A stretch of DNA of 64,000 nt from an uncultured Desulfospira sp. (lineage in GTDB: Bacteria > Desulfobacterota > Desulfobacteria > Desulfobacterales > Desulfobacteraceae). The translations under genes were made by a program, and so were the position numbers. The DNA lies in contig OY760175.1 of the NCBI GenBank assembly GCA_963663165.1, positions 1,184,001-1,248,000 on the forward strand. The letters are read 5' to 3'. How positions within the stretch are numbered: position 1 is the first letter of the stretch; every line of letters starts with the position of its first letter. Below the pieces are notes generated by a model. The model made no database searches and was not told the origin of the DNA. It was given only the letters and a program-made list of their open reading frames with translations. This document shows, one piece after another, positions 1-25,179 of this stretch.

Positions 1-547
1 TTTTGTAAAACAGGACCCGGCTGTAAAAAGCACTGGCCTTTTCCACCACAACGGCGATGTGCTGCCAGCCAATGGTCACGTCTCCGGCAGCATGGGATTC
101 CCCATGAAGGCTGACCAAATAACGATCGTCTGCAGAAAAACCGACGCTGACTATTGGTATTGAACCTGAGGATTGTTTCCCAAAAAATGTTTTCCCGGCT
201 GTGGTCCCCTGGGGGTTGACCCACAGGGACAGGGAAAAAACCGAGGGCAGGTCAAAGCTGCCGGCCTGGATATGAGCACCGGTCCCGTCAAAAGAATAGG
301 CCCTGCCGGGATTCCCGGACCGGTCCGCTGCCAGGGCGACACTATATGCAGTCCCGTCATACCCATTGGGCCCCATATCCAACACATTGCCGTCAAGGGG
401 ATAATACGAGATCAGGCCGGCCGGCAGCTCGGCGGACACCGGGACGGTTACCCCTAAAACGCTGATTAAAAACATGCCCACCCAGCAGACCGCCTGGATG
501 AAAAAAAGTTTCCCGGGGATTGATTTTATATTGCGTGTGGTATTCAT
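1..547 (-). CDS. Secreted LamG/concanavalin-like jellyroll domain protein (runs off window start)
   Basis: Translated by hand, not in ORF track: ATG at 547, hydrophobic signal-like N-terminus, then LISYYPLDGN, LSLWVNP and WQHIAVVV motifs typical of LamG_3; frame open to position 1. Confidence 0.75.
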   Translation of the reverse strand, partial: MNTTRNIKSIPGKLFFIQAVCWVGMFLISVLGVTVPVSAELPAGLISYYPLDGNVLDMGPNGYDGTAYSVALAADRSGNPGRAYSFDGTGAHIQAGSFDLPSVFSLSLWVNPQGTTAGKTFFGKQSSGSIPIVSVGFSADDRYLVSLHGESHAAGDVTIGWQHIAVVVEKASAFYSRVLFYK

Positions 548-549
548 TT

Positions 550-1422
550 TTATTTGCCTTTGCTGAGTTCCTGATTAATTATTTCCTGAACAGCCGACAA
601 ACTGCGGCCCTTCAACAGTTTCCCATTGATAAACAGGGTGGGTGTCCCTGTAACATCGGCCTTAGAGGCGTCCTGCATGTCTTTGGCCACCTGATCCCGG
701 ACCGGTGCGCTGTTCATGTCAGTTTTCCATTTTTCCATATCCAGGGCCAGGGACCGGGCAATGTCTTCAATGCCTTCTTGAGTCAACTTTTCTTGGGCAA
801 ACAGCTGATCGTGAAATTCCCAGAATTTTCCCTGATTGTGGGCAGAAAGGGCGGCCCGGGCAGCCTGATCCGCCAGGGGGTGGAGTCGGCGAAGGGGCAT
901 GTTTTTAAACACCAGCTTTACCGTGGCCGGGTTGTTTTTGAGAATCATGTCCAACAAAGGATTCATTTTCCTGCAAAAGGGGCATTCAAAATCCGTGAAT
1001 AAAGCAAGGGTGACCGGCGCATCCTCAGGGCCTTTAAACGGGGAACCGCTGATGTCAATATGATGGACAAAATCAATGGACAGGGCGGTCAGTGTGTTTG
1101 TCCGGCCGTCAATGAGGTAAAGGGTTTCAGCCCGGGGAGAAACATCAATACCGGTGACCCCTTTGCCAACCGACACCCCGCCGGCCAGCTGTCCGTCGGT
1201 GTCATAGACCAGTACCTTGCTTTCTTTGGTCAGGACAAAAACGTATTTCCCGTCATCTGAATGAACGATATCCACAGGGCTTTCCGGCAGCCGCCATTGT
1301 TTGGCCATATGCCATTCAATGGCCACGGTGTTTTCAGGTTCAGGGGATGCGGCAAGGGTAAAATCGGCCAAACAAGCCGTCATCAGGGCCGCAAGAATAA
1401 AAAAATACGGTTTTAAATTCAT
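550..1422 (-). CDS. DsbA/thioredoxin-family disulfide oxidoreductase with N-terminal beta-propeller-like segment
   Basis: FTDFECPFC (CxxC) and cis-Pro motif GTPTLFING; signal-like MNLKPYFFILAAL; start taken at ATG 1422 rather than ORF-track 1584. Confidence 0.85.
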   Translation of the reverse strand: MNLKPYFFILAALMTACLADFTLAASPEPENTVAIEWHMAKQWRLPESPVDIVHSDDGKYVFVLTKESKVLVYDTDGQLAGGVSVGKGVTGIDVSPRAETLYLIDGRTNTLTALSIDFVHHIDISGSPFKGPEDAPVTLALFTDFECPFCRKMNPLLDMILKNNPATVKLVFKNMPLRRLHPLADQAARAALSAHNQGKFWEFHDQLFAQEKLTQEGIEDIARSLALDMEKWKTDMNSAPVRDQVAKDMQDASKADVTGTPTLFINGKLLKGRSLSAVQEIINQELSKGK

Positions 1423-1555
1423 GGCGTTAAATGGTTTCCATCCATAAGCGGTTGTGTGGGGATATATCTTTAAAAATGTATAGGATAGGAACTCCCTTTT
1501 TGTCAAGGAAATGTGAAGAGAATGTGACGGATTGGCCGTTTTTAAAGCAGAAAAC

Positions 1556-2737
1556 TTAGCGCATGGCCTTGTCAATTGAGGCAAAAACCCTGTCCCAGGT
1601 ATATGCTTCCTTTGCCAGGCACCGGGCGTTTTTCTGAATCGCCTGCCACAGGGGTTTGTCCGTTAACAGGGAGTGGATGTCGCCGGCCATTTTGCCCGGA
1701 TCTTCGGATATAATCGCATGGACCCGGTCTTTGAGCGCCAGCCCCGCTGTTCCCGTCGGCGTTGTGGCCACGGGGATGCCCCGGTACAGGGCGTTAATGA
1801 TTTTAACCTTTATCCCGCCCCCGAATCTTACCGGGGCGACAAACACCCGGCATTGGTCATAATACGGGGTCAGATCCGCCACAAACCCGGTCAGGATAAT
1901 ATCTGCTTTAGACGCCACCAATCTTTGCAGTGCGTTGCCCGGGGCGGCGCCCACAATATAAAAGCGCAGCTGCGGGTTTTGGGCCTTGAGGCGGTCCCAG
2001 ACATGGGTTATAAACCAGGTCAGGCCGTCTGAGTTCGGCTCCCAGCTCAAGGTTCCCACATAAAGCAGCGTCACCTGTGTCCGGTCAAAATCAATGCCGG
2101 GCAGATCCAGCAGCCGGGCATCCCCTAAATGAAAGGTTTCATAGAATTTCTCCGGCCGGGTCCCGAGCCGTAACAAATCCAGCCGGTCATTGGGGGCGGC
2201 CAGGATGCCGTGGGCTTTTTTTCCGGCGGCTGTTTCCCAGGCCTTGATCCGTTTGGACTCCAGATAAATCACCAGTTTTTTAATGGGATTTCTTTCAAGG
2301 TGGGCCAGTTTCTCCCAGATCACATATTCCGCATTATGGGCATGCAGAATAATGCGGCCGCCAAACCCTTCCGGTATATAGGGGGCCATGATAAGGGAAT
2401 CTAAAAACAGGATATCATACCCGTCGGCAATTTGTTCGACATGGGCTTTAAACGTGGCCGAATAATTTCTGTACAGGGACAGCGGCATGTGTTTAAAATA
2501 GCTTTTCAAAAGATTCCGGATGGTCCTGGGTCTGCTCAGCATTTCCCCATAAAACGCCGTTGTTCTGATTTTTGACAACAGCATGGCTTCTCGCCGGTCA
2601 AAATTGTCCGCAAAAAACACACAAACAGCCAGGTCGTAATGCCTTGAAAGGTATTCGGCCATTTCCCACCGTTTTACGGCACCCCCGCTGACCGGCGGAT
2701 AGTCCAGCTGATGGGCAAGAAAAAGGATCTTTTTCAA
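1556..2737 (-). CDS. GT4-family glycosyltransferase
   Basis: PPVSGG N-terminal loop, VAPVRFGGGIKVKIINAL..GIPVATT motif; overlaps ABC gene by 4 nt. Confidence 0.85.
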   Translation of the reverse strand: MKKILFLAHQLDYPPVSGGAVKRWEMAEYLSRHYDLAVCVFFADNFDRREAMLLSKIRTTAFYGEMLSRPRTIRNLLKSYFKHMPLSLYRNYSATFKAHVEQIADGYDILFLDSLIMAPYIPEGFGGRIILHAHNAEYVIWEKLAHLERNPIKKLVIYLESKRIKAWETAAGKKAHGILAAPNDRLDLLRLGTRPEKFYETFHLGDARLLDLPGIDFDRTQVTLLYVGTLSWEPNSDGLTWFITHVWDRLKAQNPQLRFYIVGAAPGNALQRLVASKADIILTGFVADLTPYYDQCRVFVAPVRFGGGIKVKIINALYRGIPVATTPTGTAGLALKDRVHAIISEDPGKMAGDIHSLLTDKPLWQAIQKNARCLAKEAYTWDRVFASIDKAMR

Positions 2738-4527
2738 GGGGAAACCAGCCTTTGAAATACGGTCCTTTTATTGATCAGATCCTGGGGGGTTCCCAAGGTT
2801 TTTATCCGGCCGTTTTGAAGCAGTACAATCCGGTCACACTGTGTCAGGGCGCTCATGCGGTGGGCCACAATGATCATGGTCTTTTTGCCGTGGAGGGCAT
2901 TGACGGCCCGGGATAGATCCTGCTCGGTGTGTTCGTCCAAAGCCGATGTGGCTTCGTCAAATATGAGAAGCTCAGGGTCATGGTAAAGGGCCCGGGCAAT
3001 GGCAACCCGCTGTTTTTCCCCGCCGGACAGGGTCAGCCCCCGCTCCCCGATGTCTGTGTCCAGGCCCTGGGGCAGCGTAGATATAAAATCTTCCAGCTGG
3101 GCCATATGGACGGCTTTGGCCACTTTAGTGCGGTCAATTTCATGGGCATTGATCCCAAAGGCGATATTTTGTGCCAGGGTGTCATCGGTCAGATAGATGT
3201 CCTGGGGGACAAACCCGATTTTCCGGCGCCAGGATGCCATCCGGCTTTGAATATTCGCATCATCCACGAGAATCCGGCCTTTTAAAGGCGGTATCAGTCC
3301 CAGTATAAGATCGATAATGGTGCTTTTGCCACTGCCGGTAGGCCCCATAATGCCGATAAATTCTCCGGGATGAATGGTTATTGAAACATCGGTTAAAACC
3401 GGCCCGCGCTCCTTTTCATAGGTAAAGGAAACCTGATCCAGAACCAGATGGTGTTGAAAGGTCATGTCCGGCTGCGAATCCTGCGGGTCAGCAGATTCCG
3501 ATTCATATGTCGCTAAAAGTGCCATATCTGCGGCCAGAAGGTCTGCCTCAGCCCCGCCGTACCGGATGAGGTTGATATGCATGGACAGCCGGTTAAATGA
3601 CGGAATGGCCCGGAACCCGGCATAGGTAAAAAGGCCTAAAAGCGGCAGCACATCCTGCATCCCGCCGGCCTTTTCCATGGTTAAAAATACAATGATGAGC
3701 GGCACACAGACAAAAACGGTTTCCACCAGAAACCGGGGGCTGTGGTTCAAGGTGACCACCAGCCGCCTTTGCCGGGAAAGGGCGTTCTGGGTATGGCAAA
3801 ACATGTCATGCCAGAAGGATTCCCGGCCCATGACCTTTACTTCTTTTAATGCGCCAAACGCCTGCTGCATGGTCTTCAGGGCATTTTGCCGCATGTGTTG
3901 TTCCTGGACACCGAGCCTGGCAAACAGGCGGTGCAGCGCTATCAGCAGGGCGCCAAGCAAAAGAGACAGCAAAGAAACGCAACCGATCGTCATCATGGGA
4001 GAGGCCATGATCAGCACGGTAATAATGCCGCAAAGAATGAGGATTTCCGACAGGCCGGCGACAACGGATTCCAAGAGCAGGTGTACCGTGGCCTCCATGC
4101 CCTTGGAAGTCCGGTCAATAAGGGCGGCGGAGTTGCGGTGGAAATGAAAGGAAAACGGTGCGCCAAGATACCGCTTGAACAGGTTGGCGGACAGGAGGGC
4201 AATGGTGGTGTTGGTGAGCCGGCTTCTCAGATAGCAGGCGGTCAGCAGAAAAAAATTTTTCAGCATATAGTACAGACAGACCATTAAGACAAAGCTGAAT
4301 ATGACCGTTTTTTCATCTGCCAGGGCCAATCCCGTATAAAGCCGCGAGACCACGGGGATGTCATAAACAGCGGCCGGGTCCATCATCACCTTTAGCAGGG
4401 CATACACCGCAGCCGCGCCAAGCCCTTCGGCTGCGGCTTCTGCCGCAGAAAGCGGTATGAGGCCCGCCCAGTAACGGCGCATGGACGGCGGCAGGAGCAA
4501 AAAGGCGGTTTTTATTTGCTTAAACAC
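2734..4527 (-). CDS. ABC transporter permease/ATPase, PglK/MsbA-like lipid-linked glycan flippase
   Basis: N-terminal TM domain, Walker A GPTGSGKST, LSGGEKQR signature, FDEATSALD Walker B; flanked by glycosyltransferases. Confidence 0.85.
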   Translation of the reverse strand: MFKQIKTAFLLLPPSMRRYWAGLIPLSAAEAAAEGLGAAAVYALLKVMMDPAAVYDIPVVSRLYTGLALADEKTVIFSFVLMVCLYYMLKNFFLLTACYLRSRLTNTTIALLSANLFKRYLGAPFSFHFHRNSAALIDRTSKGMEATVHLLLESVVAGLSEILILCGIITVLIMASPMMTIGCVSLLSLLLGALLIALHRLFARLGVQEQHMRQNALKTMQQAFGALKEVKVMGRESFWHDMFCHTQNALSRQRRLVVTLNHSPRFLVETVFVCVPLIIVFLTMEKAGGMQDVLPLLGLFTYAGFRAIPSFNRLSMHINLIRYGGAEADLLAADMALLATYESESADPQDSQPDMTFQHHLVLDQVSFTYEKERGPVLTDVSITIHPGEFIGIMGPTGSGKSTIIDLILGLIPPLKGRILVDDANIQSRMASWRRKIGFVPQDIYLTDDTLAQNIAFGINAHEIDRTKVAKAVHMAQLEDFISTLPQGLDTDIGERGLTLSGGEKQRVAIARALYHDPELLIFDEATSALDEHTEQDLSRAVNALHGKKTMIIVAHRMSALTQCDRIVLLQNGRIKTLGTPQDLINKRTVFQRLVSP

Positions 4528-5750
4528 GGTCTGTCCCCATTGACTAATGATAATAGGATATTTTCTAATCGTCTTCCAAATACCGGCATAGAAAATAAGG
4601 CCTGGGCCCTTTTCTGGGCAGCTTTTCCCATGTCGGCGGCTCTGGCCGGATCAGCGATAAATGTTTTCATGGCCCGGGCAAAATCGCCGGCTGCCGGGTC
4701 ACACAAAAAACCGGTCAGCCCGTTCACGACGGTTTCTTTGGGTCCTCCCCGGTTGACCGCTATGACCGGCTTGCCGGCGGCCATGGCCTCGACAATCCCG
4801 ATGCCGAAATGTTCGTTAACACTGGTATAAACCATGATATCACAGTCCTTGAGCAAGCTTAAGCGCCGGCTGTCCGAAATGGAGGACAAAAAGACCACCT
4901 GGCCGTGCAGGTTTAACTGGTCTGCCTGTGCCTTTAAATCATCTAAGGTCTGCCGCTGCTCCGGGAGACGCTCATCACAGGCACCCGCCATGATAAGCTG
5001 TATTCCATGGAATGTCTCCGGTGAAACCGTCCCGCGAAGGGCTGCCAGGGCATCCAGGGCCAGGGCCAGATTTTTTTCAGGAGCAAACCGGTTGATGGAC
5101 AACAAATTGATCCGGCCTTTATCCGTTAATCCGGAATACATTGGCCCACTGCCCGCCGGGGTCAGAAATTGCGGGATATCAACGCCGGGATAAAGGACCT
5201 TGGGCGGTTTGCGTGAAAAATAAGGGAATGAATCTTTAAATGTCCGGGCTGTAAACTCACTGTTCACCAGGATCTGATGGGCAAACCGCATCCCAAACCG
5301 TTCCAGGCCGTTTACCGGCACCCTGTAAACCCGGTACAGCCCCTTTTTTTGAGGCGCAAGAAGGACATCCGGGTAATGGCCGTAAAACAAAATCTTTGCC
5401 CTGGATATCAGGCGGTAAAAGGGAATAACATGGGGCACCAGGTCACAAACCATAACGTCACAGCAGCGGGATGCCTGTTTCATGGCCAGGGCCATCACCA
5501 TCATCCGGGCAATGGCACAAGGGACGCGAAACCGGCCGGACAGGCCATGGGGGACGAAATTACCCGCGACCTTTATGGTCAGCATGGGGTTGCGTGTCTT
5601 CTCAAGACAATGGCAGGGATCATACCGGCCGGTAAAAATGGTAACCTCATGGCCCTGGTTCACAAGTTCAACCGCCGCATCAACCATCAGCCGTTCAGCG
5701 CCGCCAATGCCCAGATCCGGATGTAAAAATGCAATCTTGAGCCGTTTCAT
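4512..5750 (-). CDS. ALG2-like alpha-1,3/1,6-mannosyltransferase (GT4)
   Basis: IAFLHPDLGIGGAERLMVDAA, YDPCHC, LSINRF..EKNL, YTSVNEHFGI..VEAM..GKPVIAVNRGGPKETV match eukaryotic ALG2 motifs as recalled. Confidence 0.85.
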   Translation of the reverse strand: MKRLKIAFLHPDLGIGGAERLMVDAAVELVNQGHEVTIFTGRYDPCHCLEKTRNPMLTIKVAGNFVPHGLSGRFRVPCAIARMMVMALAMKQASRCCDVMVCDLVPHVIPFYRLISRAKILFYGHYPDVLLAPQKKGLYRVYRVPVNGLERFGMRFAHQILVNSEFTARTFKDSFPYFSRKPPKVLYPGVDIPQFLTPAGSGPMYSGLTDKGRINLLSINRFAPEKNLALALDALAALRGTVSPETFHGIQLIMAGACDERLPEQRQTLDDLKAQADQLNLHGQVVFLSSISDSRRLSLLKDCDIMVYTSVNEHFGIGIVEAMAAGKPVIAVNRGGPKETVVNGLTGFLCDPAAGDFARAMKTFIADPARAADMGKAAQKRAQALFSMPVFGRRLENILLSLVNGDRPCLSK

Positions 5751-5986
5751 TTTTTGTTATGTTCCAAAAAACAAAATATCCCGTTAAAAAAAGTCTCCAA
5801 GGTTAGAATACGGCCTTAGACGCGATACGGTTTCATCATGTTGAGGCAGTATCAGGTCCAAAGTCGCCCCGTCAAGAAAAAAATAGCTTGAGAAAAAACC
5901 GCTGCTTTGGTTACCATGATGTTTTGGCAAATTAAAAATAATCCAGGCACACATAACAACAAAGAAGCGTACTATCGAGGTCACCC

Positions 5987-7414
5987 ATGATCGGTCCTGT
6001 GTTTTTTTTCATCCCCCTTGTATTTATCATTTTCCTTTGGCTCTGGTTCCGGTCAAAGACCGCATGGAAAAAGCCGCGCCGGCCAAATGAAACGGTTGTG
6101 GCGTTTTTCCATCCCAATGCCCTGTGCGGCGGCGGGGGAGAACGGGTCCTGTGGATGATGATCCATGCGCTGCAAAAAAGGGATCAGGCAAACGCGGTCC
6201 GGTACGTGATCTATCTGAGTGGGCCGGCCCCAGTGTCATTTTTTGAAGCATCCCGGAAAATCAAATCCCAGTTTAACATCCAACTGAAGGACCCTGTAGA
6301 ATTTATCCCGGTTAAGAAATCACACTTGATTGACGGGGACAGATACCGCCGTTTTACAATGATCCGCCAGGCCATCGGCTCCATCCGGCTGGCCTTTGAA
6401 TGCCTGACCCGGCTTTGCCCCGATTATTACGTGGACACCACCGGGTTTGCCTTTTGCTATCCCCTTGCCCGGCTGGCCGGCTGCAAGGTCATGACATACA
6501 CCCACTACCCGGCCATCAGCGCCGACATGGTATCTGTTGTCCGCGCTAAAACCAACGCCCACAATAACCAGGCCGTCATCGCGCAAAGCCAATGGCTGAC
6601 CGGAATTAAAATATTCTACTATGGTGTGTTTTCTCTTGTATACGGTCTTTGCGGGAAATGCGCCCACCGGGTCATGGTAAACTCCTCGTGGACATGGTCC
6701 CATATTCAGGCCATCTGGTCTCCAAAGGATATTCATATTGTGTTTCCCCCGGCGCCGGTTGAGCATTTAATGAACCTGCCCCTGGGCCCGCGGCAGAACC
6801 AGATTATCTCAGTGGCCCAATTTCGTCCTGAAAAACGGCACGATTTTCAGATCCGTGTGTTTGCCAACGTATTAGAAAGGTGCCGGAAGGAACGTATTAA
6901 GGAAGAACCCCGGTTGGTTCTCGTGGGCGGGTGCCGCAACAAAGCCGATGAGCAATACGTCAGGGACTTGAAAGAACTGGCCCGGCAGTTAGGGGTCCAA
7001 AGCCATGTCGTATTTGCCCCCAACGCGCCATACGAAAAACTGACAGCGTATTTAGGGTCGTCCAAAATTGGCCTGCACGCCATGTGGAACGAACACTTCG
7101 GCATTGGTGTGGTGGAGTACATGGCCGCAGGCTGCATTGCCGTGGCTCACAAAAGCGGCGGGCCTGCACTGGATATCCTTGTCCCGGCCCATGACGGGCC
7201 AAGGGGGTTCCTTGCCGATTCCATGGAGACCTATGTTGCCGCACTGTGCCATATTCTGCTTGGGGAACGGCCCGAAAAGGACCTTGAAAACATACGAATC
7301 CGAGGCCGTAAGCAGTGTCAGAAATTTTCCAACGACATATTTATCAAAAAAATACAGCGACTGATGGTCTTTACCGGCACATCTTTGTGTTTATTCTGGC
7401 CAGCGCCATTTTAG
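5987..7414 (+). CDS. ALG11-like alpha-1,2-mannosyltransferase (GT4) with N-terminal TM anchor
   Basis: AFFHP..CGGGGERVLW, YTHYPAISADM, VMVNSSWT, QFRPEKRH, GGCRNKAD, GLHAMWNEHFGIGVVEYMAAG..AHKSGGP match eukaryotic ALG11 motifs as recalled. Confidence 0.9.
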   Translation: MIGPVFFFIPLVFIIFLWLWFRSKTAWKKPRRPNETVVAFFHPNALCGGGGERVLWMMIHALQKRDQANAVRYVIYLSGPAPVSFFEASRKIKSQFNIQLKDPVEFIPVKKSHLIDGDRYRRFTMIRQAIGSIRLAFECLTRLCPDYYVDTTGFAFCYPLARLAGCKVMTYTHYPAISADMVSVVRAKTNAHNNQAVIAQSQWLTGIKIFYYGVFSLVYGLCGKCAHRVMVNSSWTWSHIQAIWSPKDIHIVFPPAPVEHLMNLPLGPRQNQIISVAQFRPEKRHDFQIRVFANVLERCRKERIKEEPRLVLVGGCRNKADEQYVRDLKELARQLGVQSHVVFAPNAPYEKLTAYLGSSKIGLHAMWNEHFGIGVVEYMAAGCIAVAHKSGGPALDILVPAHDGPRGFLADSMETYVAALCHILLGERPEKDLENIRIRGRKQCQKFSNDIFIKKIQRLMVFTGTSLCLFWPAPF

Positions 7415-7495
7415 CGGCCATGGGGCTGGACATGATGACCGCCTTTGGGGCTGCAGCATCCTGCATCGGCAATATCGGGGGGCCCTTTTCAAATG
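7365..7495 (+). pseudogene. Remnant of a TrkH-type K+ transporter C-terminal segment
   Basis: Alternative frame reads LY..IFVFILASAILAAMGLDMMTAFGAAASCIGNIG, resembling the last TrkH pore loop (GNIGPG); boundaries approximate. Confidence 0.55.
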
Positions 7496-7506: not shown

Positions 7507-8760
7507 CTACTTGATTCTTTGGATATCCGCACCCAGTTGTGAAAACTTCTTTTCAATGGCCTCGTACCCCCGGTCCATGTGGTACACCCGGGAGATCACC
7601 GTGGTGCCCCGGGCCATAAGGCCTGCGATGACCAGGGAGGCCGAGGCCCGAAGATCCGATGCCATGACCGGCGCCCCCTGAAGGGACTTAACCCCCCGGA
7701 CCATGGCGTAATTGCCGCTGGACACGGTGATTCTGGCCCCCAAGCGAATCAGTTCATTGGCATGAATGAAGCGGTTTTCAAAAATCGACTCATGAATAAC
7801 GGAATCCCCTTTGGCCACCGAGAGCATGGCCATGAACTGGGCCTGCATGTCCGTTGGAAACCCGGGGTATGGCAGGGTTTTGATGTCCACGCTTTTAATG
7901 GTTTCCTGCCCCTTTACCCGGATACGGTCCTGGCCGGTTTCTATCAGGGCACCAGTCCCTTTTAACTTGCTGATCACCCCGCCGATATGGTCCGGACAGC
8001 AGCCCTCAATGGTGACATCCCCGCCGGTTGCCGCCGCCGCCACCATAAAGGTGCCGGTTTCAATCCGGTCAGGAATGACATTGACCGTTGCCGGATGAAG
8101 GGCGTCCACCCCTTCGATCTCAATGATGGCGGTCCCGGCCCCGGACACCTTAGCCCCCATCTGGTTCAATGCATCGGCCAGACAGACAATTTCAGGCTCT
8201 CTGGCCGCATTCCTGATCACGGACCGCCCCCTGGCCAGCACTGCGGCCATCATCAGGTTTTCTGTCCCGGTTACCGTCGGGGTATCAAAGTAAATGTCCC
8301 CCCCGGTGAGCCGGTCGGCCTTGGCCTCAATATACCCGTGATCAATGGAAATCTTTGCCCCTAAAGATTCAAGCCCGGAAAGATGCATATTCACCGGTCT
8401 TGCCCCAATGGCGCACCCGCCGGGCATGGAGACCTTGGCATGGCCGAACCGGGCTGTCAGAGGACCTAACACCAGAATAGAGGCCCTCATTTTTCTGACC
8501 AGGTCATATTCGGCCTCAATCTTGTTGATGCCGGAACCGTCTACGGTGAACACATGATCTTCAAAGGTACACCGGGCACCTAAATCTTCAAGCAGAAGCC
8601 GGATGCTTTTGATATCCATCAGGTCCGGAACATTGTAAAAAGTGGTGGTGCCGTTGACCAGAATTCCTGAAGCAATCAGGGGAAGGGCCGCATTTTTAGC
8701 CCCGCTGATCTTGACCGTCCCGTGAAGTTTTCTGCCGCCATTTATCTGTATTTTATCCAT
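7507..8760 (-). CDS. murA: UDP-N-acetylglucosamine 1-carboxyvinyltransferase
   Basis: [30 protein letters not shown] (active-site Cys), [19 protein letters not shown]; start at MDKIQ. Confidence 0.97.
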
Positions 8761-8789
8761 AAGCTCCGGTTGAAACAATTTCCTTAACT

Positions 8790-9001
8790 AACGGTCACGG
8801 GCCGTCTTGGTTATCCAACCAAGCACCGCCCACAACGAATAATGAAACTGAAGATACCAGCAACGGTAGACTATAAATTGGGCACCGCAGGTGCTTCGCC
8901 CTCTTGTCTCTTGTTTCTTGTTTCTTGTCTCCAGTTTCTTATAAACGGCCACGGGCCGCCCTGGTTGTCCAACCAAGAACCGCCCACAACAAATAATGAA
9001 A
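8790..9001. repeat. Two 58-bp imperfect direct repeats (8790-8847, 8944-9001) flanking a CTTGTYT heptamer tract
   Basis: aacggYcacgggccgYcYtggttRtccaaccaagMaccgcccacaacRaataatgaaa seen twice. Confidence 0.8.
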
Positions 9002-9182
9002 GTCTTCTCAAGATGTTAGTGAGACTTTCATATAAAAAATATCAAACCATTTTTCTTGCCCTGCAACTTAGGGGATATGGACCATTTTTTCCAGAAAAAA
9101 ATTATTTTTACCCTTCATGCATTGATTTCCCCATCCTCCCCCGAAAGAATAAAGGCTCAGCCATGCCGGTCACCGGCGTTTA

Positions 9183-10802
9183 TCATGCCTCAGACGGTTC
9201 CGGGTCAGATGCCGATGGCACAGCCGGGTAGAGCGGGTTCCATTGCCCTGAAACATGAATCAGGTAATGCTCTGTGGGAAGCTGCTCCAAAAACGGCGGA
9301 TCTCCCAGCCAGCGGCGGTGTTGCTGCCAGGCGGCCACTTCCAGGGCCCCCCTTGGGCTGCGCAGGGAACCATCAGATGCGATCTCGCTGAACTTTAAAC
9401 GGTGGCTTCTGACGGGGAGATCCCCTTTCCGGAGTATTTCCAGCCGGCCGTGAACGTGAAGACCGTATTTTTCAGCGTTTCTGGCAAAATGGGTTTGTTC
9501 AAACAGGACAAAGGCGCTGGCGGTCAGACTGTTCAGGCAGTCATAGGCCCCCTGGATGAACTCAAACGTCTTTTCAAGGTCATGGTCTGTGCTGGTGGGC
9601 AGGCCAAAAATCATCAGGCCCATATTTGAAATCCCGGCCAGGCTGCCCGCCTCCAGGACCTTTTGAATATCCGGCACCACCGTTCCCTTGTTCACCAGAT
9701 CCAGCAGGCGCTGGGACCCGGTCTCAATCCCCCACCCGATCCACCGGCACCCGGCAGCTGACCAGAGAGCCATGCGGCCGGGGGTGCAGTCCCGGGTGGG
9801 GCGGCCCAGAATATGAAGGTTCACCGACAGCCCCCGGGCCAGAATCGCCTCACAGATGGCATCCATGTCTTCTGGCTGAATAAACTCGTCTGCCGAATAA
9901 AAATAGCGAACCCCCAGGGTCCGGGCATAGGTTTCAATTTCAGAAACAAAGGCCTGGGCATTTTTTTTCCGGAACCCCCCAAAGGAAAAATTATGGGAGC
10001 AGAACCGGCAGCGCCGCCAGGCACAGCCTCTGGAAAAAAGAACCGGCAGAACCGGTTCCGGGTTGAAGTATGCCTCCAGGGGAAGCCTTGAAAAATCGGG
10101 TGGCGGCAACGCTTCCAAGGAAGGGGCTGACCTGGAATTGACCTGAATCCCCCAGCCGGATCTGTACACCAGGCCGGGGACCCTGGAAAAGTCCGTTTTC
10201 CGGCAAAGGGCTGCCAGAGCGCCCTCCCCTTCCCCCTTTACGATACCGTCAATTTCCGGTACAGCGGTGAGCAGGTCTTTTACAGACAGGGCAGACATCA
10301 TGGCCCCGCCCATCACCAGGCAAGCCTTCCGGCCTGTGCCGGCCATGGCCTGATTTACTGACACGGCCAGGGCGGCGGCAAAGGGCACCTGTTCAGGGAA
10401 CAGAACCGAAACCCCGATCAGCTCGGGGTCAAAGGACAGAACCTGTTCGGTCATGGCCCCCAGCAAGGAGATGAATTTGGGGTCAGATGATCCGGCAGCG
10501 ACAAAATTTTTGGCCTGTTCCACCAGCCCGGCCATGGCCTGCCTGATCCGGTTCCAGGCTGTTTTGTGGAAAAGGGTAAGGCCGGGGTCCAGAAAATTCC
10601 CCTGCAGGCCCCGGACAAAGGCCATAAGGTCCTGACCGCCAGGGTCTTCACCTGCAGCTCTGATCCAGGCTGCGATATTCAGATCCACCAGGCGCACAGC
10701 CGTTCCGGGAACGGCCCATTCAACAAAAGGGGCCAGCGATGCAATCCCTAACGGCACATAGGTTGCCCCGGCCCCGGGCGGAAAAACAAGAACCACTCTC
10801 AA
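9183..10802 (-). CDS. B12-binding domain radical SAM protein
   Basis: N-terminal PLGIASLA cobalamin-domain start; SRGCAWRRCRFC CxxxxCxxC motif; GIETGSQRLL. Confidence 0.9.
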   Translation of the reverse strand: MRVVLVFPPGAGATYVPLGIASLAPFVEWAVPGTAVRLVDLNIAAWIRAAGEDPGGQDLMAFVRGLQGNFLDPGLTLFHKTAWNRIRQAMAGLVEQAKNFVAAGSSDPKFISLLGAMTEQVLSFDPELIGVSVLFPEQVPFAAALAVSVNQAMAGTGRKACLVMGGAMMSALSVKDLLTAVPEIDGIVKGEGEGALAALCRKTDFSRVPGLVYRSGWGIQVNSRSAPSLEALPPPDFSRLPLEAYFNPEPVLPVLFSRGCAWRRCRFCSHNFSFGGFRKKNAQAFVSEIETYARTLGVRYFYSADEFIQPEDMDAICEAILARGLSVNLHILGRPTRDCTPGRMALWSAAGCRWIGWGIETGSQRLLDLVNKGTVVPDIQKVLEAGSLAGISNMGLMIFGLPTSTDHDLEKTFEFIQGAYDCLNSLTASAFVLFEQTHFARNAEKYGLHVHGRLEILRKGDLPVRSHRLKFSEIASDGSLRSPRGALEVAAWQQHRRWLGDPPFLEQLPTEHYLIHVSGQWNPLYPAVPSASDPEPSEA

Positions 10803-20103: not shown

Positions 20104-23100
20104 ATGAGACAGACACTCCATATTATAAAAACATTGGTGGTTGTCCTTATAATTTCATTATATTCAATACCAACCGCCTTTTCAGGCGATAGTGTCTGCG
20201 CCCGGGTGAAGATCGAAATAGAGCAGGAGATCGCCCTGGAGCGCCAGGCTTTTGATGCTCATATGCGCATCACCAACGGGCTGACCCATGTTTCCCTGGA
20301 AAATGTGGAAATAGAAGTTTCTTTTTCAGATGAGGAAGGCAACAATGTCGTGGCTTCCTCTGACCCGGACAATTCAGATGCCCTGTTTTTCATCCGTATT
20401 GATACCATGAGCGGGATAGATGATGTAAGCGGTGGCGGCGTGGTAGGTCCGGATACCGTGGCCGACATTCACTGGCTGATCATTCCGGCCCAGGGGGCCA
20501 GTGACGGCCTGGAGCAGGGAACCCTTTATTATGTGGGAGCCCACCTTATTTATACTATTGGCGGCGAAGAACATATTACCATGGTCTCTCCCGACTATAT
20601 TTTTGTCAAGCCCATGCCTGATTTAGTTTTGGATTATTTTATTCCCAATGATGTATACGGCGATGATCCGTTTACCAGTGAAATAGAAGAGGCGGTTCCG
20701 TTTTCTTTAGGAGTCAGGGTAAGCAACACCGGTCAAGGCACAGCCAAATCCCTTAAAATAGAATCAGCCCAGCCCAAGATCGTGGAAAATGAGCAAGGGT
20801 TATTGATCAACTTCTTCATCCAAGGTAGTGAGGTAAATGGTCAGGAGGAAACCCCAGGACTGTTGGTGGATTTCGGTGACCTTGAGCCTGCTAAAGCTGG
20901 AACGGCAAGGTGGACAATGACTTGCTCTCTTTATGGAAAATTTGTAGAATTTTCGGCCGAACTGACCCATTCAGACGAGCTGGGCGGGGAACTGACCTCT
21001 CTTATTTCAGCTTATAATACCCATTTTTTGGTTCGCGACGTACTGGTGGACCTGCCCGGCCGGGACGGAATCAGGGATTTCCTGGCCTTAGAGGGTGAAG
21101 AGTATACTGTTTACGAGTCTGATAATATAGACACCCAGGTTACGGACCAGAGCGCATTGGCCAATATGATACAAATCGGAACCAACGGCACCCAAAGCAT
21201 TTACACCCTCACCGTTCCAGTTACGGATGGGCCTATGGTCGTCCGGCTTGACGACCCCCTGTCCGGCACAAAAGAAATCCTGTCCGCAATCCGTTCAGAC
21301 GGCAAAGCGATCTCCATGGATAATGTCTGGCTCTACAAGACCCGGACAACGGACAATCCATGGCAATTTTATTTTTATTTATTTGATGTGAATACCCCAG
21401 GGACCTATACCATTGTGTTTGAAAATTCGTCAATCCTGGCCAAAGCTCCGGTACTGCAGTATATACCGGATCGGCAGCGGGGCGAGGAAGAACAGCTGTC
21501 CTTTATTGTCGAAGCCAGTGATCCCAACGGTTCGGTTCCCTCACTTTCAACTTCATCCCTTCCGCCAGGGGCCATTTTTGTAGACAACGGCGACGGCACA
21601 GGATTATTTGATTGGATTCCCATAGAAGGCCAGGCCGGATCTTATCCCGTAAAATTTACGGCCTCCGACGGTATCCTGACAGATTCCCAGACCACCATCA
21701 TAAAAATTTGTCCCATCAACGACTCAGACTGTGACGGAATGGACGACCAATGGGAACTGGACAACTTCGGCAGCCTGGACCGGGACGGCACCGATGATTA
21801 TGATGGAGACGGTATTTCTGATCTGAATGAGTACCTGAACGGAACAGATCCCACAGGAACCGAAAATGCGCCCAGTGTTCCCGTCATCAATTCTCCTGAG
21901 ATTAATGAAATCGTATCTCTTCTCCAGCCTGAGTTGTCTGTCCTTTGCAGCACCGATGCAGATGGAGACATCCTGACCTATGAATTTGAGCTTTTTTCGG
22001 ATGCCGGATATACCACGTTGGTGGCAGGTGAAAGCGGCGTGCCGGAATCAGGCAGCATTGTCCTCTGGACAGTACCGGAAGAACTTGTTGAAAACAAGAC
22101 CTACTATTGGCGCGCCAGGGCTTTTGACGGAGTTGCTTATACCCTCTGGACCCATGGCAGGTTTCTTGTCAGCCAGACCAATGAACCGCCTATTCCTTTT
22201 GATCTTTTAACCCCGAAAGATTCAATGACTGTGGACTCCGTCCGTCCGACTCTTTTTTCAGGTTATAGTAACGACCCTGAAGATGATTCTTTGACATATA
22301 TGTTCTCAATTTATTCTGACCAGGCCCTGACCCAACAGGTGGCATCAGGGCCGGGGGAAGCAGACAAAGAAACCGGAATGGTCTCATGGCAGGTAAATGA
22401 AGACCTGACAGACGCAACCTTGTATTTTTGGCAGGTAACGGTTGAGGATTCTTCCCAAAACACCGAATCCAGTGAGATTTTTTCTTTTACAGTACAGACC
22501 GCCAACCATACGCCATCAGCTCCTGAAATACTGTTTCCATCAGCCTGCAGCCAGGTCGAAACAGTTGATCCGGTGCTGACCATTGTTTCTGTTACTGACC
22601 CTGACGGTGACAGTGTTGAATACGATTTCCAGATTGATGTTTCAAAAAATTTTAACTCAGAAAACTTAATTACATCCGGCCCGGATCAGATCATAATTTC
22701 CAATGAAAAGGTGCAATGGCATCTTCAGGGCCTCCAGGATGACACTGTATATTATTGGCGGATAAGATCAAAAGACAGCGTTTCTACGAGCAAATGGGCT
22801 TGCAATCGTTTTTTCGTAAACACATACAATAATTCCCCTGAAACACCAGTTGTTAAAAATCCGGGGAATTTATCGTGGGTGGACAGGTTAACCCCCGAAC
22901 TGTCACTTCATCCTGCCGAAGAACCGGATAATGATAGTATTGAGATAATAGTCCAATTATACACTGACAATAACCTTAACAACCTTGTGTTTGAGGGTTC
23001 TTCACAGGGGTCGGTTTTAACGGTTTCCAATGAACTCGAAGATGCCACTTGGTATTACTGGAGAGCCAGGCTGGTAGATGAACATGGTGTACCGGGCTCG

Positions 23101-25179
23101 TGGAGCGAGACTAAAGCATTTTTTGTTAAAGAAAATACACAGAATGAGTCTCCCAACATCAATGTTTATGAAGATGCGGAAGACGGTACCACCAGTGGCT
23201 GGGATATCTACGCAAACGACCCTGAGGGAGCCATAATTTCCAATGTTTACGATGCCCTCAAAGAAAGCCGGGTCATCGAATTTACAGGTTCGGGCACATC
23301 CAATGGATACTGGCTTGGAAATGATGATTTCAGTGATTGGAATGACGAGCAATTCAAGGTCATAGAATGGTCCATGTGCTATGCCGAAGACTTTGTAATT
23401 CATGTTGTCGTACAAACCAGGGACGGTTTCAGGTACCTCAAGTATACCACTGATGAAATCGATGACCTTGGTGATGGGACTTATATCCATCACGGTCTTG
23501 GCAGCTTTGCAACAGACGGCAACTGGCATACCCTTGTCAGGGACCTTGAATATGATCTTAAAGAAGCGCAACCGAACAATGAGCTGGAAGCGGTTCTTGG
23601 TTTTCTTATTCGCGGCAGCGGGAAGGTGGATGATATTAAAACCATTGGTGCTATTCCCGAGTCCCTTGATTCAGATGGAGACGACCTTACAGACCTTGAA
23701 GAAATAAACATATACGGCACCCATCCATACCATGCAGATAGCGATGGTGATGCCCTGACCGACGAAGAGGAACTTAATTATTGGGATTCTGACTGGAATG
23801 AAGATATAGACGGCGATGGAAAAATTAATCTGCTGGATGATGACTCAGACGATGATGGTTATTCAGACGGTTATGAGCTGGTTGCCGGGTCAGACCCCGG
23901 TGACGGGTTTAGTTTTCCTGATTCATTTGTTTACGAAGATGCGGAAGACGGTACCACCAGTGGCTGGGATATCTACGCAAACGACCCTGAGGGAGCCATA
24001 ATTTCCAATGTTTACGATGCCCTCAAAGAAAGCCGGGTCATCGAATTTACAGGTTCGGGCACATCCAATGGATACTGGCTTGGAAATGATGATTTCAGTG
24101 ATTGGAATGACGAGCAATTCAAGGTCATAGAATGGTCCATGTGCTATGCCGAAGACTTTGTTATTCATGTTGCCGTACAGACCAGGGACGGTTTCAGGTA
24201 CCTCAAATATACCACTGATGAAATCGATGACCTTGGTGATGGGACTTATATCCATCACGGTCTTGGCAGCTTGGCAACAGACGGCAACTGGCATACCCTT
24301 GTCAGGGACCTTGAATATGATCTTAAAGAAGCGCAACCGAACAATGAGCTGGAAGCGGTTCTTGGTTTTCTTATTCGCGGCAGCGGGAAGGTGGATGATA
24401 TTAAAACCATTGGTGCTATTCCCGAGTTCCTTGATTCAGATGGAGACGACCTTACAGACCTTGAAGAAATAAACATATACGGCACCCATCCATACCATGC
24501 AGATAGCGATGGTGATGCCCTGACCGACGAAGAGGAACTTAATTATTGGGATTCTGACTGGAATGAAGATATAGACGGCGATGGAAAAATTAATCTGCTG
24601 GATGATGACTCAGACGATGATGGTTATTCAGACGGTTATGAGCTGGTTGCCGGGTCAGACCCCGGTGACGGGTTTAATTTTCCTGATTCATTTGTTTACG
24701 AAGATGCGGAAGACGGTACCACCAGTGGCTGGGATATCTACGCAAACGACCCTGAGGGAGCCATAATTTCCAATGTTTACGATGCCCTCAAAGAAAGCCG
24801 GGTCATCGAATTTACAGGTTCGGGCACATCCAATGGATACTGGCTTGGAAATGATGATTTCAGTGATTGGAATGACGAGCAATTCAAGGTCATAGAATGG
24901 TCCATGTGCTATGCCGAAGACTTTGTAATTCATGTTGTCGTACAAACCAGGGACGGTTTCAGGTACCTCAAGTATACCACTGATGAAACCGATGACCTTG
25001 GCGACGGGACATATATCCATCACGGTCTTGGCAGCTTGGCAACAGACGGCAACTGGCATACCCTTGTCAGGGATCTTGAATATGATCTTAAAGAAGCGCA
25101 ACCGAACAATGAGCTGGAAGCGGTTCTTGGTTTTCTTATTCGCGGCAGCGGGAAGGTGGATGATATCATTTTAAAATGA
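20104..25179 (+). CDS. Large secreted multidomain surface protein (Ig/cadherin-like, FN3-like, Asp-rich TSP3-like Ca-binding repeats, three C-terminal repeats)
   Basis: RBS AGAGGA, Sec signal, DSDGDxLxDxEE/DxDGDG repeats, YYWR-type FN3-like repeats. Confidence 0.85.
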   Translation: MRQTLHIIKTLVVVLIISLYSIPTAFSGDSVCARVKIEIEQEIALERQAFDAHMRITNGLTHVSLENVEIEVSFSDEEGNNVVASSDPDNSDALFFIRIDTMSGIDDVSGGGVVGPDTVADIHWLIIPAQGASDGLEQGTLYYVGAHLIYTIGGEEHITMVSPDYIFVKPMPDLVLDYFIPNDVYGDDPFTSEIEEAVPFSLGVRVSNTGQGTAKSLKIESAQPKIVENEQGLLINFFIQGSEVNGQEETPGLLVDFGDLEPAKAGTARWTMTCSLYGKFVEFSAELTHSDELGGELTSLISAYNTHFLVRDVLVDLPGRDGIRDFLALEGEEYTVYESDNIDTQVTDQSALANMIQIGTNGTQSIYTLTVPVTDGPMVVRLDDPLSGTKEILSAIRSDGKAISMDNVWLYKTRTTDNPWQFYFYLFDVNTPGTYTIVFENSSILAKAPVLQYIPDRQRGEEEQLSFIVEASDPNGSVPSLSTSSLPPGAIFVDNGDGTGLFDWIPIEGQAGSYPVKFTASDGILTDSQTTIIKICPINDSDCDGMDDQWELDNFGSLDRDGTDDYDGDGISDLNEYLNGTDPTGTENAPSVPVINSPEINEIVSLLQPELSVLCSTDADGDILTYEFELFSDAGYTTLVAGESGVPESGSIVLWTVPEELVENKTYYWRARAFDGVAYTLWTHGRFLVSQTNEPPIPFDLLTPKDSMTVDSVRPTLFSGYSNDPEDDSLTYMFSIYSDQALTQQVASGPGEADKETGMVSWQVNEDLTDATLYFWQVTVEDSSQNTESSEIFSFTVQTANHTPSAPEILFPSACSQVETVDPVLTIVSVTDPDGDSVEYDFQIDVSKNFNSENLITSGPDQIIISNEKVQWHLQGLQDDTVYYWRIRSKDSVSTSKWACNRFFVNTYNNSPETPVVKNPGNLSWVDRLTPELSLHPAEEPDNDSIEIIVQLYTDNNLNNLVFEGSSQGSVLTVSNELEDATWYYWRARLVDEHGVPGSWSETKAFFVKENTQNESPNINVYEDAEDGTTSGWDIYANDPEGAIISNVYDALKESRVIEFTGSGTSNGYWLGNDDFSDWNDEQFKVIEWSMCYAEDFVIHVVVQTRDGFRYLKYTTDEIDDLGDGTYIHHGLGSFATDGNWHTLVRDLEYDLKEAQPNNELEAVLGFLIRGSGKVDDIKTIGAIPESLDSDGDDLTDLEEINIYGTHPYHADSDGDALTDEEELNYWDSDWNEDIDGDGKINLLDDDSDDDGYSDGYELVAGSDPGDGFSFPDSFVYEDAEDGTTSGWDIYANDPEGAIISNVYDALKESRVIEFTGSGTSNGYWLGNDDFSDWNDEQFKVIEWSMCYAEDFVIHVAVQTRDGFRYLKYTTDEIDDLGDGTYIHHGLGSLATDGNWHTLVRDLEYDLKEAQPNNELEAVLGFLIRGSGKVDDIKTIGAIPEFLDSDGDDLTDLEEINIYGTHPYHADSDGDALTDEEELNYWDSDWNEDIDGDGKINLLDDDSDDDGYSDGYELVAGSDPGDGFNFPDSFVYEDAEDGTTSGWDIYANDPEGAIISNVYDALKESRVIEFTGSGTSNGYWLGNDDFSDWNDEQFKVIEWSMCYAEDFVIHVVVQTRDGFRYLKYTTDETDDLGDGTYIHHGLGSLATDGNWHTLVRDLEYDLKEAQPNNELEAVLGFLIRGSGKVDDIILK
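23164..25166 (+). repeat. 765-bp near-identical tandem repeat, two full units plus one partial
   Basis: Units start gtttaYgaagatgcgg at 23164, 23929, 24694. Confidence 0.95.

Follow-up and report, generated by a model that had tools for sequence, protein, structure and literature searches.

The stretch analyzed here, referred to throughout as the window, is 64,000 nucleotides long and comprises bases 1,184,001-1,248,000 of the single 6.74 Mb contig of an uncultured Desulfospira sp. Near its beginning are four genes, encoding an ALG11-like mannosyltransferase, an ALG2-like mannosyltransferase, an ABC half-transporter and a further glycosyltransferase, GT4c. Judged by its domains and relatives, the ALG11-like protein is a true ALG11 orthologue. 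The presence of ALG11, an ALG2-like protein and a flippase in a sulfate-reducer-type bacterium suggests that bacteria have a natural route of their own to eukaryote-like mannose glycans. We think it somewhat probable that the four genes form a cytoplasmic-face module that mannosylates a polyprenol-diphosphate-linked glycan and then flips it, that N-glycosylation by a PglB-type oligosaccharyltransferase is the likeliest sink for the product, and that the ALG11 gene is derived from a eukaryote. The open reading frames (ORFs) were called mechanically, with a first-start rule, and are arranged as follows.

5987-7414, plus strand: ALG11-like protein, a candidate GDP-mannose (GDP-Man) alpha-1,2-mannosyltransferase (P0001, 475 residues), with ALG11_N and a GT4 C-terminal domain containing EHFGIGVVE
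5751-5986, no strand: divergent intergenic region of 236 bp, with back-to-back promoter-like sites and a conserved core
4512-5750, minus strand: ALG2-like protein, a candidate GT4 mannosyltransferase (P0002, 412 residues), with a GIGGAER loop and EHFGIGIVE; Pfam Glycos_transf_1 and Glyco_transf_4
2734-4527, minus strand: ABC half-transporter with transmembrane and nucleotide-binding domains, a candidate flippase of lipid-linked oligosaccharides (P0004, 597 residues); Pfam ABC_membrane and ABC_tran
1556-2737, minus strand: GT4c, a Glyco_trans_1_4 GT-B glycosyltransferase (by Pfam) without an E-x7-E pair (P0003, 393 residues)
550-1584, minus strand: DsbA-like thioredoxin-fold protein; Pfam Thioredoxin_4 and DSBA

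This layout agrees with the original prediction, which had been made from the letters of the stretch and had described the ALG2-like and ALG11-like genes as divergently transcribed, the former overlapping an ABC flippase gene that in turn overlaps a third GT4.

The identity of the ALG11-like protein is well marked, to a degree that chance could not produce. The Pfam profile ALG11_N matches it with 240.2 bits (E = 3e-71, cut-off 29.8) over profile positions 2-209 of 209, and with 242.9 bits in a profile search of the whole genome; the GT4 C-terminal domain matches Glycos_transf_1 with 82 bits. The motifs by which it was originally recognized, FFHP..GGGGERVLW, HYPAISADM, NSSWT, QFRPEK and MWNEHFGIGVVE, are all in the translation. 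The E-x7-E pair is intact, as it is in the ALG2-like protein, and both glutamates of EHFGIGVVE are invariant in four bacterial or metagenome members of the family. The N-terminal transmembrane segment that had been predicted corresponds to a hydrophobic stretch at residues 1-19, with a mean Kyte-Doolittle value of 2.59; this anchor is judged from hydropathy alone, and neither the ALG2-like protein nor GT4c has such a segment. Within the genome, the sole paralogue match is 24% identical, and in the PDB no ALG11, ALG2 or ALG1 chain was detectable by sequence.

A search of 5.8 billion proteins gave 3,017 matches at E ≤ 1e-10, of which the best 120 were inspected. The first three are of prokaryote type, with identities of 86% (on a 5.3 Mb contig), 73% (205 kb) and 51% (2.2 kb). 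All later source-named rows among these 120 are eukaryotic GDP-Man:Man3GlcNAc2-PP-Dol alpha-1,2-mannosyltransferases, from animals, plants and a green alga, with 38-47% identity at 84-97% coverage; for animal and plant ALG11, the identity is 43-46% at 84-97% coverage. HMMER against 1.84 billion cluster representatives found 729 with E ≤ 1e-30. Twenty of these were checked, and seven have organism names, as follows: Diplonema, Carpediemonas, Sanchytrium, a pedinophyte, Chlorokybus, Spongospora and Porphyridium. Two more of the 20 are MMETSP transcripts; the named ones are all eukaryotes, none prokaryotic. From this, and from a tree in which the clade containing the window protein is separated from four ALG2-like outgroup sequences with a support of 100 in the SH-like approximate likelihood ratio test (SH-aLRT), the ALG11-type assignment, and the expectation that the protein would group with eukaryotic ALG11s and not with generic bacterial GT4s, have held up well. 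The sequence thus makes it a candidate GDP-Man alpha-1,2-mannosyltransferase.

The gene is rare in bacteria. Of the 161 family genomes, three have ALG11_N; they are the window's own, that of one congener out of two, and a single one among 51 from another genus. The domain was not found in a sample of 400 other genomes of the phylum, nor in 14 control genomes. When one genome for each of 185,579 species was scanned with a peptide pattern, which detects close relatives only, two loci were obtained. In a metagenome scan, 402 stretches encode ALG11 relatives, and the neighbouring genes were examined in the best 80, a set that leaves out the contigs of P0007, P0377, P0265, P0373 and P0389. Only one of these 80 loci, L018, has the neighbours of the bacterial ALG11-like gene; it lies on the 205 kb contig that carries P0006. 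Coding density was determined for six of the 80, and three have an ORF coverage of 17-25%, as in eukaryotic DNA, and three of 62-86%.

The ALG2-like gene is present in 4 of the 161 family genomes and in 2 of 401 genomes of the phylum sample. A pair of genes encoding a PglB-type oligosaccharyltransferase and a MurG-like protein, described below, is present in six family genomes and is always adjacent. The distributions are nested: four of the six genomes with PglB and MurG-like genes carry the ALG2-like gene and GT4c, and three of those four carry the ALG11-like gene. The complete genome of a congener lacks all three sets alike. In one family genome, G078 (L100/L017, G078:C118), GT4c lies next to the ALG2-like gene, the ABC gene between them is cut to its last 50 codons, and ALG11 is absent; this genome retains the PglB and MurG-like genes despite the decayed ABC gene.

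Two trees of the ALG11 family were built, one with FastTree from 154 rows (150 ALG11-family and four ALG2-like outgroup sequences) and the other with an IQ-TREE quick search under LG+C20-PMSF from 51 rows, with SH-aLRT support. They agree that three bacterial proteins and two metagenome proteins, P0007 and P0377, form a clade (99 SH-aLRT). When the C20 tree is rooted on the ALG2-like sequences, this clade has three unnamed ALG11s as its sister group (98) and is nested below nodes with supports of 90 and 80. The window protein has a mean identity of 38.9% to 42 eukaryote or unnamed ALG11s, and the mean among those 42 is 40.4%. Given these similar means and the lack of a eukaryote-specific stem, the bacterial clade lies at the depth of the radiation of the eukaryotic supergroups. 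Because of this crown-depth placement and the narrow bacterial range, the most economical reading is that the ALG11 gene was acquired by transfer from a eukaryote, a direction of transfer that we infer and regard as probable. In Lombard (2016; PMC4973528), ALG11 is treated as a eukaryotic clade, with GT4s of TACK archaea as its closest relatives among prokaryotes.

The four genes behave as a unit. They are collinear at three other loci, L003, L004 and L018, with 72-92% protein identity, and the flanks are conserved only within the genus. With the first-start rule, the ALG2-like and ABC genes overlap by 16 nt and the ABC and GT4c genes by 4 nt, so that the chain of overlaps originally described is present, with the exception that its last member, having no E-x7-E pair, is not the classical GT4 it had been taken for. 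Pairwise ratios of nonsynonymous to synonymous substitution (dN/dS) are 0.13-0.35 for all four genes and 0.13-0.29 for the ALG11-like gene; dS is similar in all four, as expected of a co-inherited unit. Compared with 2,094 long ORFs of the host, all four genes fall between the 17th and 74th percentiles in third-position GC (GC3) and in codon-usage distance. Thus, the unit is under purifying selection and is host-like in codon usage. In addition, window positions 1-7422 are spanned with 0 differences by a contig of 8,822 bases from a public run, and runs of two studies contain the stretch; since the best run may be the source sample, this contig is not independent support.

Within the spacer at 5751-5986, a core is strongly conserved in three genomes, against only 72-86% protein identity in their coding regions. 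The spacer contains three sigma-70-like sites where 0.8 are expected, including one at 5875-5848 on the minus strand and one at 5888-5917 on the plus strand, all of these being consensus matches only. These promoter-like sites are predicted promoters for the ALG2-like operon, to the minus side, and for the ALG11-like gene, to the plus side.

The ALG2-like protein probably belongs, by its sequence, to a widespread bacterial ALG2 clade. The G-rich loop GIGGAER lies within HPDLGIGGAERL, at residues 10-21, and this segment is found in the translation along with SINRF, NEHFGI and GGPKETV, the other motifs cited for it. The E-x7-E motif reads EHFGIGIVE, with both glutamates present and a G at the V position of the consensus E-H-F-G-I-V-P-L-E. 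The relatives number in the hundreds and are bacterial and metagenome proteins of 43-54% identity, from Desulfatiglans, Nitrospira, Binatia and deltaproteobacterial metagenome-assembled genomes (MAGs), many of which bear the JGI name alpha-1,3/alpha-1,6-mannosyltransferase. In the Atlas, the clusters nearest to it are labelled ALG2 family and are both bacterial and eukaryotic. Xu et al. (bioRxiv 10.1101/2025.10.15.682550), in the available part of their preprint, define the GIGGAER loop and the EHFGIVPLE motif as ALG2 signatures and report that bacterial ALG2 homologues complement yeast alg2 or make Man3GlcNAc2-PP-phytanyl in vitro. The claim of a eukaryote-type ALG2 therefore needs rewording: the protein probably does fall in the ALG2 family, but it is no eukaryote-type oddity, being part of a large bacterial clade with published active homologues.

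The ABC protein is a type-IV-fold half-transporter, with ABC_membrane and ABC_tran in one 597-residue chain. Among NCBIfam models, PglK is at the top with 294.7 bits, followed by MsbA with 285. In the PDB, C. jejuni PglK (5c73/6hrc) matches residues 77-576 with 247-249 bits and is the only half-transporter among the best 60 of 388 matches. The description of this protein as a PglK-like flippase is supported by the PDB comparison and is weakened by the nearly equal MsbA score and by the PglK equivalog cut-off, which it misses.

GT4c, first taken for a classical GT4, does not qualify as one, since the E-x7-E pair is missing; it is instead a GT-B enzyme of the Glyco_trans_1_4 type, and its family keeps R304, K310 and K312 invariant. 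It has no significant BLASTP similarity to the ALG2-like protein. The nearest NCBIfam model is TIGR03087, matched with 171 bits, below the cut-off of 316; the protein resembles transferases of the PEP-CTERM system and others named PslH, and its nearest Atlas clusters are generic bacterial glycosyltransferases. Homologues of GT4c and of the ALG2-like protein are found on contigs of matching sizes (98,378; 40,857; 31,960; 96,389; 14,122) in several phyla, which we read as a probable pairing conserved across phyla. In our preferred explanation, the ALG2-like, GT4c and ABC genes together make up a long-established bacterial module.

The genome was also searched for the parts of a glycosylation pathway that the original prediction had noted as missing from the window, with success for several of them. 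A PglB-type oligosaccharyltransferase of 729 residues is encoded at G000:C1:6027307-6029493. It matches the Pfam families STT3-PglB_core (53.1 bits, cut-off 23) and STT3 (28.6 bits, cut-off 24.5), and aligns with C. lari PglB (5ogl) at E = 1.7e-18. In this alignment, WWDKGY pairs with WWDYGY, and the HDGY, DTD, TVPE and GIRFT stretches are likewise matched to those of PglB. With 77 vs 1300, the protein misses the NCBIfam equivalog cut-off for PglB. The PglB-like gene overlaps that of a 383-residue MurG-like protein, which scores 223.6 with TIGR01133, below the cut-off of 250.25; the genuine murG (268.6) lies in mraY-murD-ftsW-murG-murC at 2.70 Mb. A WecA-like enzyme of 546 residues (L107, G000:C1:583001-588000; 168 bits, below the cut-off) is, apart from MraY, the only protein of the MraY/WecA family in the genome, which also has three genes of ManC type for GDP-mannose. 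The Alg14 Pfam family is absent from the genome by profile search; the ALG1-type enzyme, the other part not found, is taken up below. The WecA-like gene adjoins a gene for a tetratricopeptide-repeat (TPR) lipoprotein of the PEP-CTERM system, with a ManC gene and a paralogue of GT4c (26% identity) no more than 25 kb away.

N-glycosylation is known in the phylum. According to the available part of one report, the HmcA cytochrome of Desulfovibrio gigas carries N-linked HexNAc3, a glycan of N-acetylhexosamine (HexNAc) residues (PMC4894442), and a second, likewise in its available part, describes relaxed N-X-S/T sequons for Desulfovibrio PglBs (PMC12229607). The published HexNAc3 glycan fits a HexNAc-HexNAc core made by a MurG-like enzyme.

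We propose the following pathway, built on the gene identities, orthology, synteny, selection and co-distribution described above and on the presence of an oligosaccharyltransferase, a MurG paralogue, a WecA-like enzyme and ManC; the chemistry throughout, including the sugar specificities, the order of the steps and the link to PglB, is inferred. A WecA-type primer would form HexNAc-PP-undecaprenol, to which the MurG-like enzyme, a candidate N-acetylglucosamine (GlcNAc) transferase, would add a second HexNAc. The acceptor for the ALG2-like enzyme would come from a further enzyme, for which GT4c is the only candidate in the unit; that GT4c substitutes for ALG1 is a guess. The ALG2-like enzyme would then add the core alpha-mannoses, and the ALG11-like enzyme, anchored by its N-terminal helix, would add alpha-1,2-mannose. 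The PglK/MsbA-class ABC half-transporter would flip the product to the periplasmic face, where the PglB-type enzyme would transfer the glycan to Asn. As to its history, the ALG11 gene would have been acquired from a eukaryote long enough ago for full amelioration and would have been inserted head-to-head with the ALG2-like operon. In its most specific form, the proposal is a natural oligomannose N-glycan, up to the Man5GlcNAc2 type, built on undecaprenol and transferred by PglB, with a eukaryote-derived ALG11 grafted onto a bacterial ALG2/flippase module and a PglB/MurG-like core. We put this form forward tentatively and consider it rather doubtful in full; a branched oligomannose on GlcNAc2 is likewise only a presumed structure for the glycan.

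The sink for the flipped glycan might instead be something other than PglB. In this alternative, the module makes a mannose-containing surface polysaccharide, a part of lipopolysaccharide (LPS) or a glycolipid that is flipped by the ABC protein and then ligated or set free independently of PglB, and the co-occurrence with PglB is due to the shared ancestry of a few genomes. A number of observations weigh against our proposal and several of them suit this alternative. By contig coordinates, 4.8 Mb separate the ALG cluster from the PglB pair; the two lie apart also in G113 and G057, and nowhere in the family does the ALG cluster lie beside the oligosaccharyltransferase. Two genomes, G024 and G110, have the PglB and MurG-like genes but lack ALG genes altogether, and PglB can thus do without the ALG module. 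The carrier genomes are kin, and the co-distribution therefore amounts to only about two independent co-occurrences. GT4c resembles the PEP-CTERM-system and PslH-named transferases, as noted above. In G198, from another family of the phylum, an ALG2-like gene of 45% identity lies in a polysaccharide-type cluster (L099, G198:C44:233001-253000), with GT1, GT2-like and Glyco_transf_17 (GnT-III family) proteins, an 850-residue Wzy_C/O-antigen-ligase-like protein, and the sugar-nucleotide enzymes UDP-glucose dehydrogenase and an epimerase; in the window's genome, nothing near the unit corresponds to the GT1 of G198 or to the unassigned neighbouring genes of G057 and G078. No ALG1-type beta-1,4-mannosyltransferase was identified in the genome, in which no search aimed at ALG1 was made. 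The ABC protein falls well short of the cut-off of the PglK equivalog model (294.7 vs 1000), and the G that replaces the consensus V in the ALG2-like E-x7-E is at the position where, in the available part of bioRxiv 10.1101/2025.10.15.682550, a V-to-A change lowered activity. On the other hand, all four ALG2-like and all three ALG11-like genomes among the 161 fall within the six that have PglB, and no polymerase, ligase or Wzx/Wzm-Wzt gene is in or beside the unit in three genomes. Synthesis of such a polysaccharide or glycolipid is thus a possibility of lesser probability, and keeps that standing because no ALG1-type step has been identified, the loci are separate, PglB occurs without ALG genes, and the G198 cluster exists. 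The hybrid pathway first envisaged is accordingly upheld in its parts, with ALG11, an ALG2-family protein, a flippase, an oligosaccharyltransferase, a MurG-like protein, a WecA-like enzyme and ManC all present, and falls short in the ALG1-type enzyme and in the oligosaccharyltransferase, which is never adjacent.

The origin of the ALG11 gene has an alternative of its own, namely that the bacterial clade is a remnant of the prokaryotic lineage that gave rise to eukaryotic ALG11, much as bioRxiv 10.1101/2025.10.15.682550, in its available part, argues for a bacterial ancestry of ALG1 and ALG2. A tree with the bacterial clade outside monophyletic eukaryotes is not rejected (AU, approximately unbiased test, p = 0.084 with LG+F+G4 and a fast search), and the ALG11 root is unstable, two further points against a eukaryotic source. 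The outgroup, on a branch of 2.3-8.7 substitutions per site, attaches on the green lineage, on Carpediemonas or on P0389 in three analyses; the third of these, a 34-row LG+C20 tree whose search stopped early and in which the outgroup joins unk_P0389 on a branch of 8.7, serves only as a sign of instability. Because the outgroup lands differently each time, rooting on ALG2-like sequences is unreliable. The gene is fully ameliorated, and the bacterial clade is internally deep, with 51-53% identity to P0007, as would suit an old prokaryotic lineage. Against this, in none of the three rootings does the outgroup attach to the bacterial stem, and forcing all 42 eukaryote or unnamed rows into a clade makes the tree 67.8 log-likelihood units worse, with a branch uniting the eukaryotes of only 2.6e-6, so that no branch unites eukaryotes against bacteria. 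The bacterial range is extremely narrow, and P0377, a metagenome member of the clade, has long low-complexity inserts that, by inspection, are eukaryote-like in kind. We therefore hold a prokaryotic remnant to be unlikely; of the two origins initially offered, horizontal transfer fits ALG11 better, and an ancient prokaryotic lineage survives at the AU value given. Still less credible, to the point of being negligible, is that the unit is an artefact, whether eukaryotic contamination, a chimeric join or a decaying insert without function. Such a unit can decay, as shown by G078, with an ABC gene down to its last 50 residues and no ALG11, and nothing else speaks for it. Contamination and a chimeric join, a concern raised at the outset, are ruled out by the single 6.74 Mb contig, the identical arrangement in three further assemblies, the host-typical codon usage, and purifying selection with motifs intact (dN/dS 0.13-0.29); the public-run contig, too, spans the DsbA-like to the ALG11-like gene with 0 differences.

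Bacterial N-glycosylation, bacterial homologues of ALG1 and ALG2, and PglK-type flippases are already known. What is new is a bona fide ALG11, with ALG11_N, in bacteria, likely of eukaryotic origin, and its position head-to-head with the gene for the enzyme that precedes ALG11 in the eukaryotic pathway. The literature searched, including combinations of ALG11 with Desulfobacter, Desulfospira, PglB or Deltaproteobacteria and searches for prokaryotic ALG11/ALG2 homologues, holds no report of a bacterial ALG11, and the available part of bioRxiv 10.1101/2025.10.15.682550, on bacterial ALG1 and ALG2, leaves ALG11 aside.

A bona fide ALG11 under selection in bacteria is a clear case of an enzyme of the endoplasmic reticulum pathway crossing domains. 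It offers a concrete system in which to ask if oligomannose N-glycans are made by bacteria, a question relevant to the assembly of the eukaryotic pathway. For glycoengineering, it would provide an intron-free, soluble-expression-friendly ALG11 with natural ALG2-like, flippase and PglB partners. Engineered E. coli strains with "eukaryotic glycosylation" exist, and the proposed pathway would be their natural counterpart.

Around the unit, the minus-strand order after GT4c continues with the DsbA-like gene, which GT4c overlaps by 29 nt (first-start rule), and then with a gene for a Laminin_G_3-domain protein. The DsbA-like gene adjoins the four-gene unit in L003 (93.5% identity) and not in L004; it is possibly an operon passenger, in a neighbourhood kept only within the genus. 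On the other side, at 7507-10802, murA, the genome's only copy, and a gene for a B12-binding radical SAM protein separate the ALG11-like gene from a GFA gene. In the congener locus L003, the GFA gene directly follows the ALG11-like gene, the difference being a genus-level rearrangement bounded by a repeat element. This repeat, at 8790-9045 between murA and the radical SAM gene, consists of two copies of a GC-rich unit of ~55 nt around an AT-rich core. It has about 220-265 BLASTN matches across the genome, resembles a MITE/REP-like element, and breaks short-read assemblies, in which the summed contig depth is about 25,000 vs 150.

Farther along the window, a 290-residue ORF at 12460-13332 matches the Druantia DruA family with 125 bits, and no further Druantia genes were recognised nearby. 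At 20104-25179, a 1691-residue protein has three Glce_b_sandwich matches (the beta-sandwich of D-glucuronyl C5-epimerase, 114 bits) and Ig-like domains. The stretch 26508-57653 is a polymorphic-toxin array of three large RHS-repeat proteins (4787, 1862 and 1962 residues) with differing, low-GC C-terminal tips, one of which is a prokaryotic phospholipase A2 domain; DDE transposases are interspersed (41686-43083 and 58923-60425).

The system can be compared with four known ones. The bacterial ALG2 and ALG1 homologues of Xu et al. share with the window's ALG2-like protein the GIGGAER loop and an E-x7-E motif, and their clade is of a similar kind, bacterial and rich in MAGs, with members from Deltaproteobacteria, Binatia and Nitrospira. 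They differ in that the window protein has G for the consensus V and that no ALG1 homologue was found in the window's genome, in which, as said, ALG1 was not specifically searched for. In the available part of that preprint, ALG11 appears only as background, and the terms "gene cluster", "PglB" and "operon" appear nowhere.

The PglB systems of Desulfovibrio (PMC4894442, PMC12229607), as the available parts of the two papers present them, are of the same phylum and have a single-subunit PglB-type oligosaccharyltransferase; the MurG-like transferase beside PglB in the window's genome fits the HexNAc core. The window's proteins are from a different family of that phylum, and those parts of the two papers describe no ALG2- or ALG11-type mannosyltransferase. 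The pgl system of Campylobacter, with PglB, PglK and GT4 Pgl transferases, is similar in its cytoplasmic GT-B enzymes, in an ABC half-transporter for which PglK is the nearest match, and in a PglB-type oligosaccharyltransferase with aligned motifs. In contrast to Campylobacter, the oligosaccharyltransferase of the window's genome is encoded at another locus, bacillosamine genes are absent, the transferases are mannosyltransferases of ALG type, and the proteins miss the PglK and PglB NCBIfam equivalog cut-offs widely.

Finally, the eukaryotic ALG11 differs from the protein described here, which is a bacterial protein, on a bacterial chromosome and with bacterial codon usage, whose lipid carrier would be a bacterial polyprenol and not dolichol, and which has no ALG1 partner among the enzymes identified. 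In other respects, the two are alike: they are collinear over their full length with 43-46% identity, both have ALG11_N, an N-terminal membrane helix (predicted from hydropathy in the window protein) and the E-x7-E pair, and in trees the bacterial protein lies at the depth of the eukaryotic crown.

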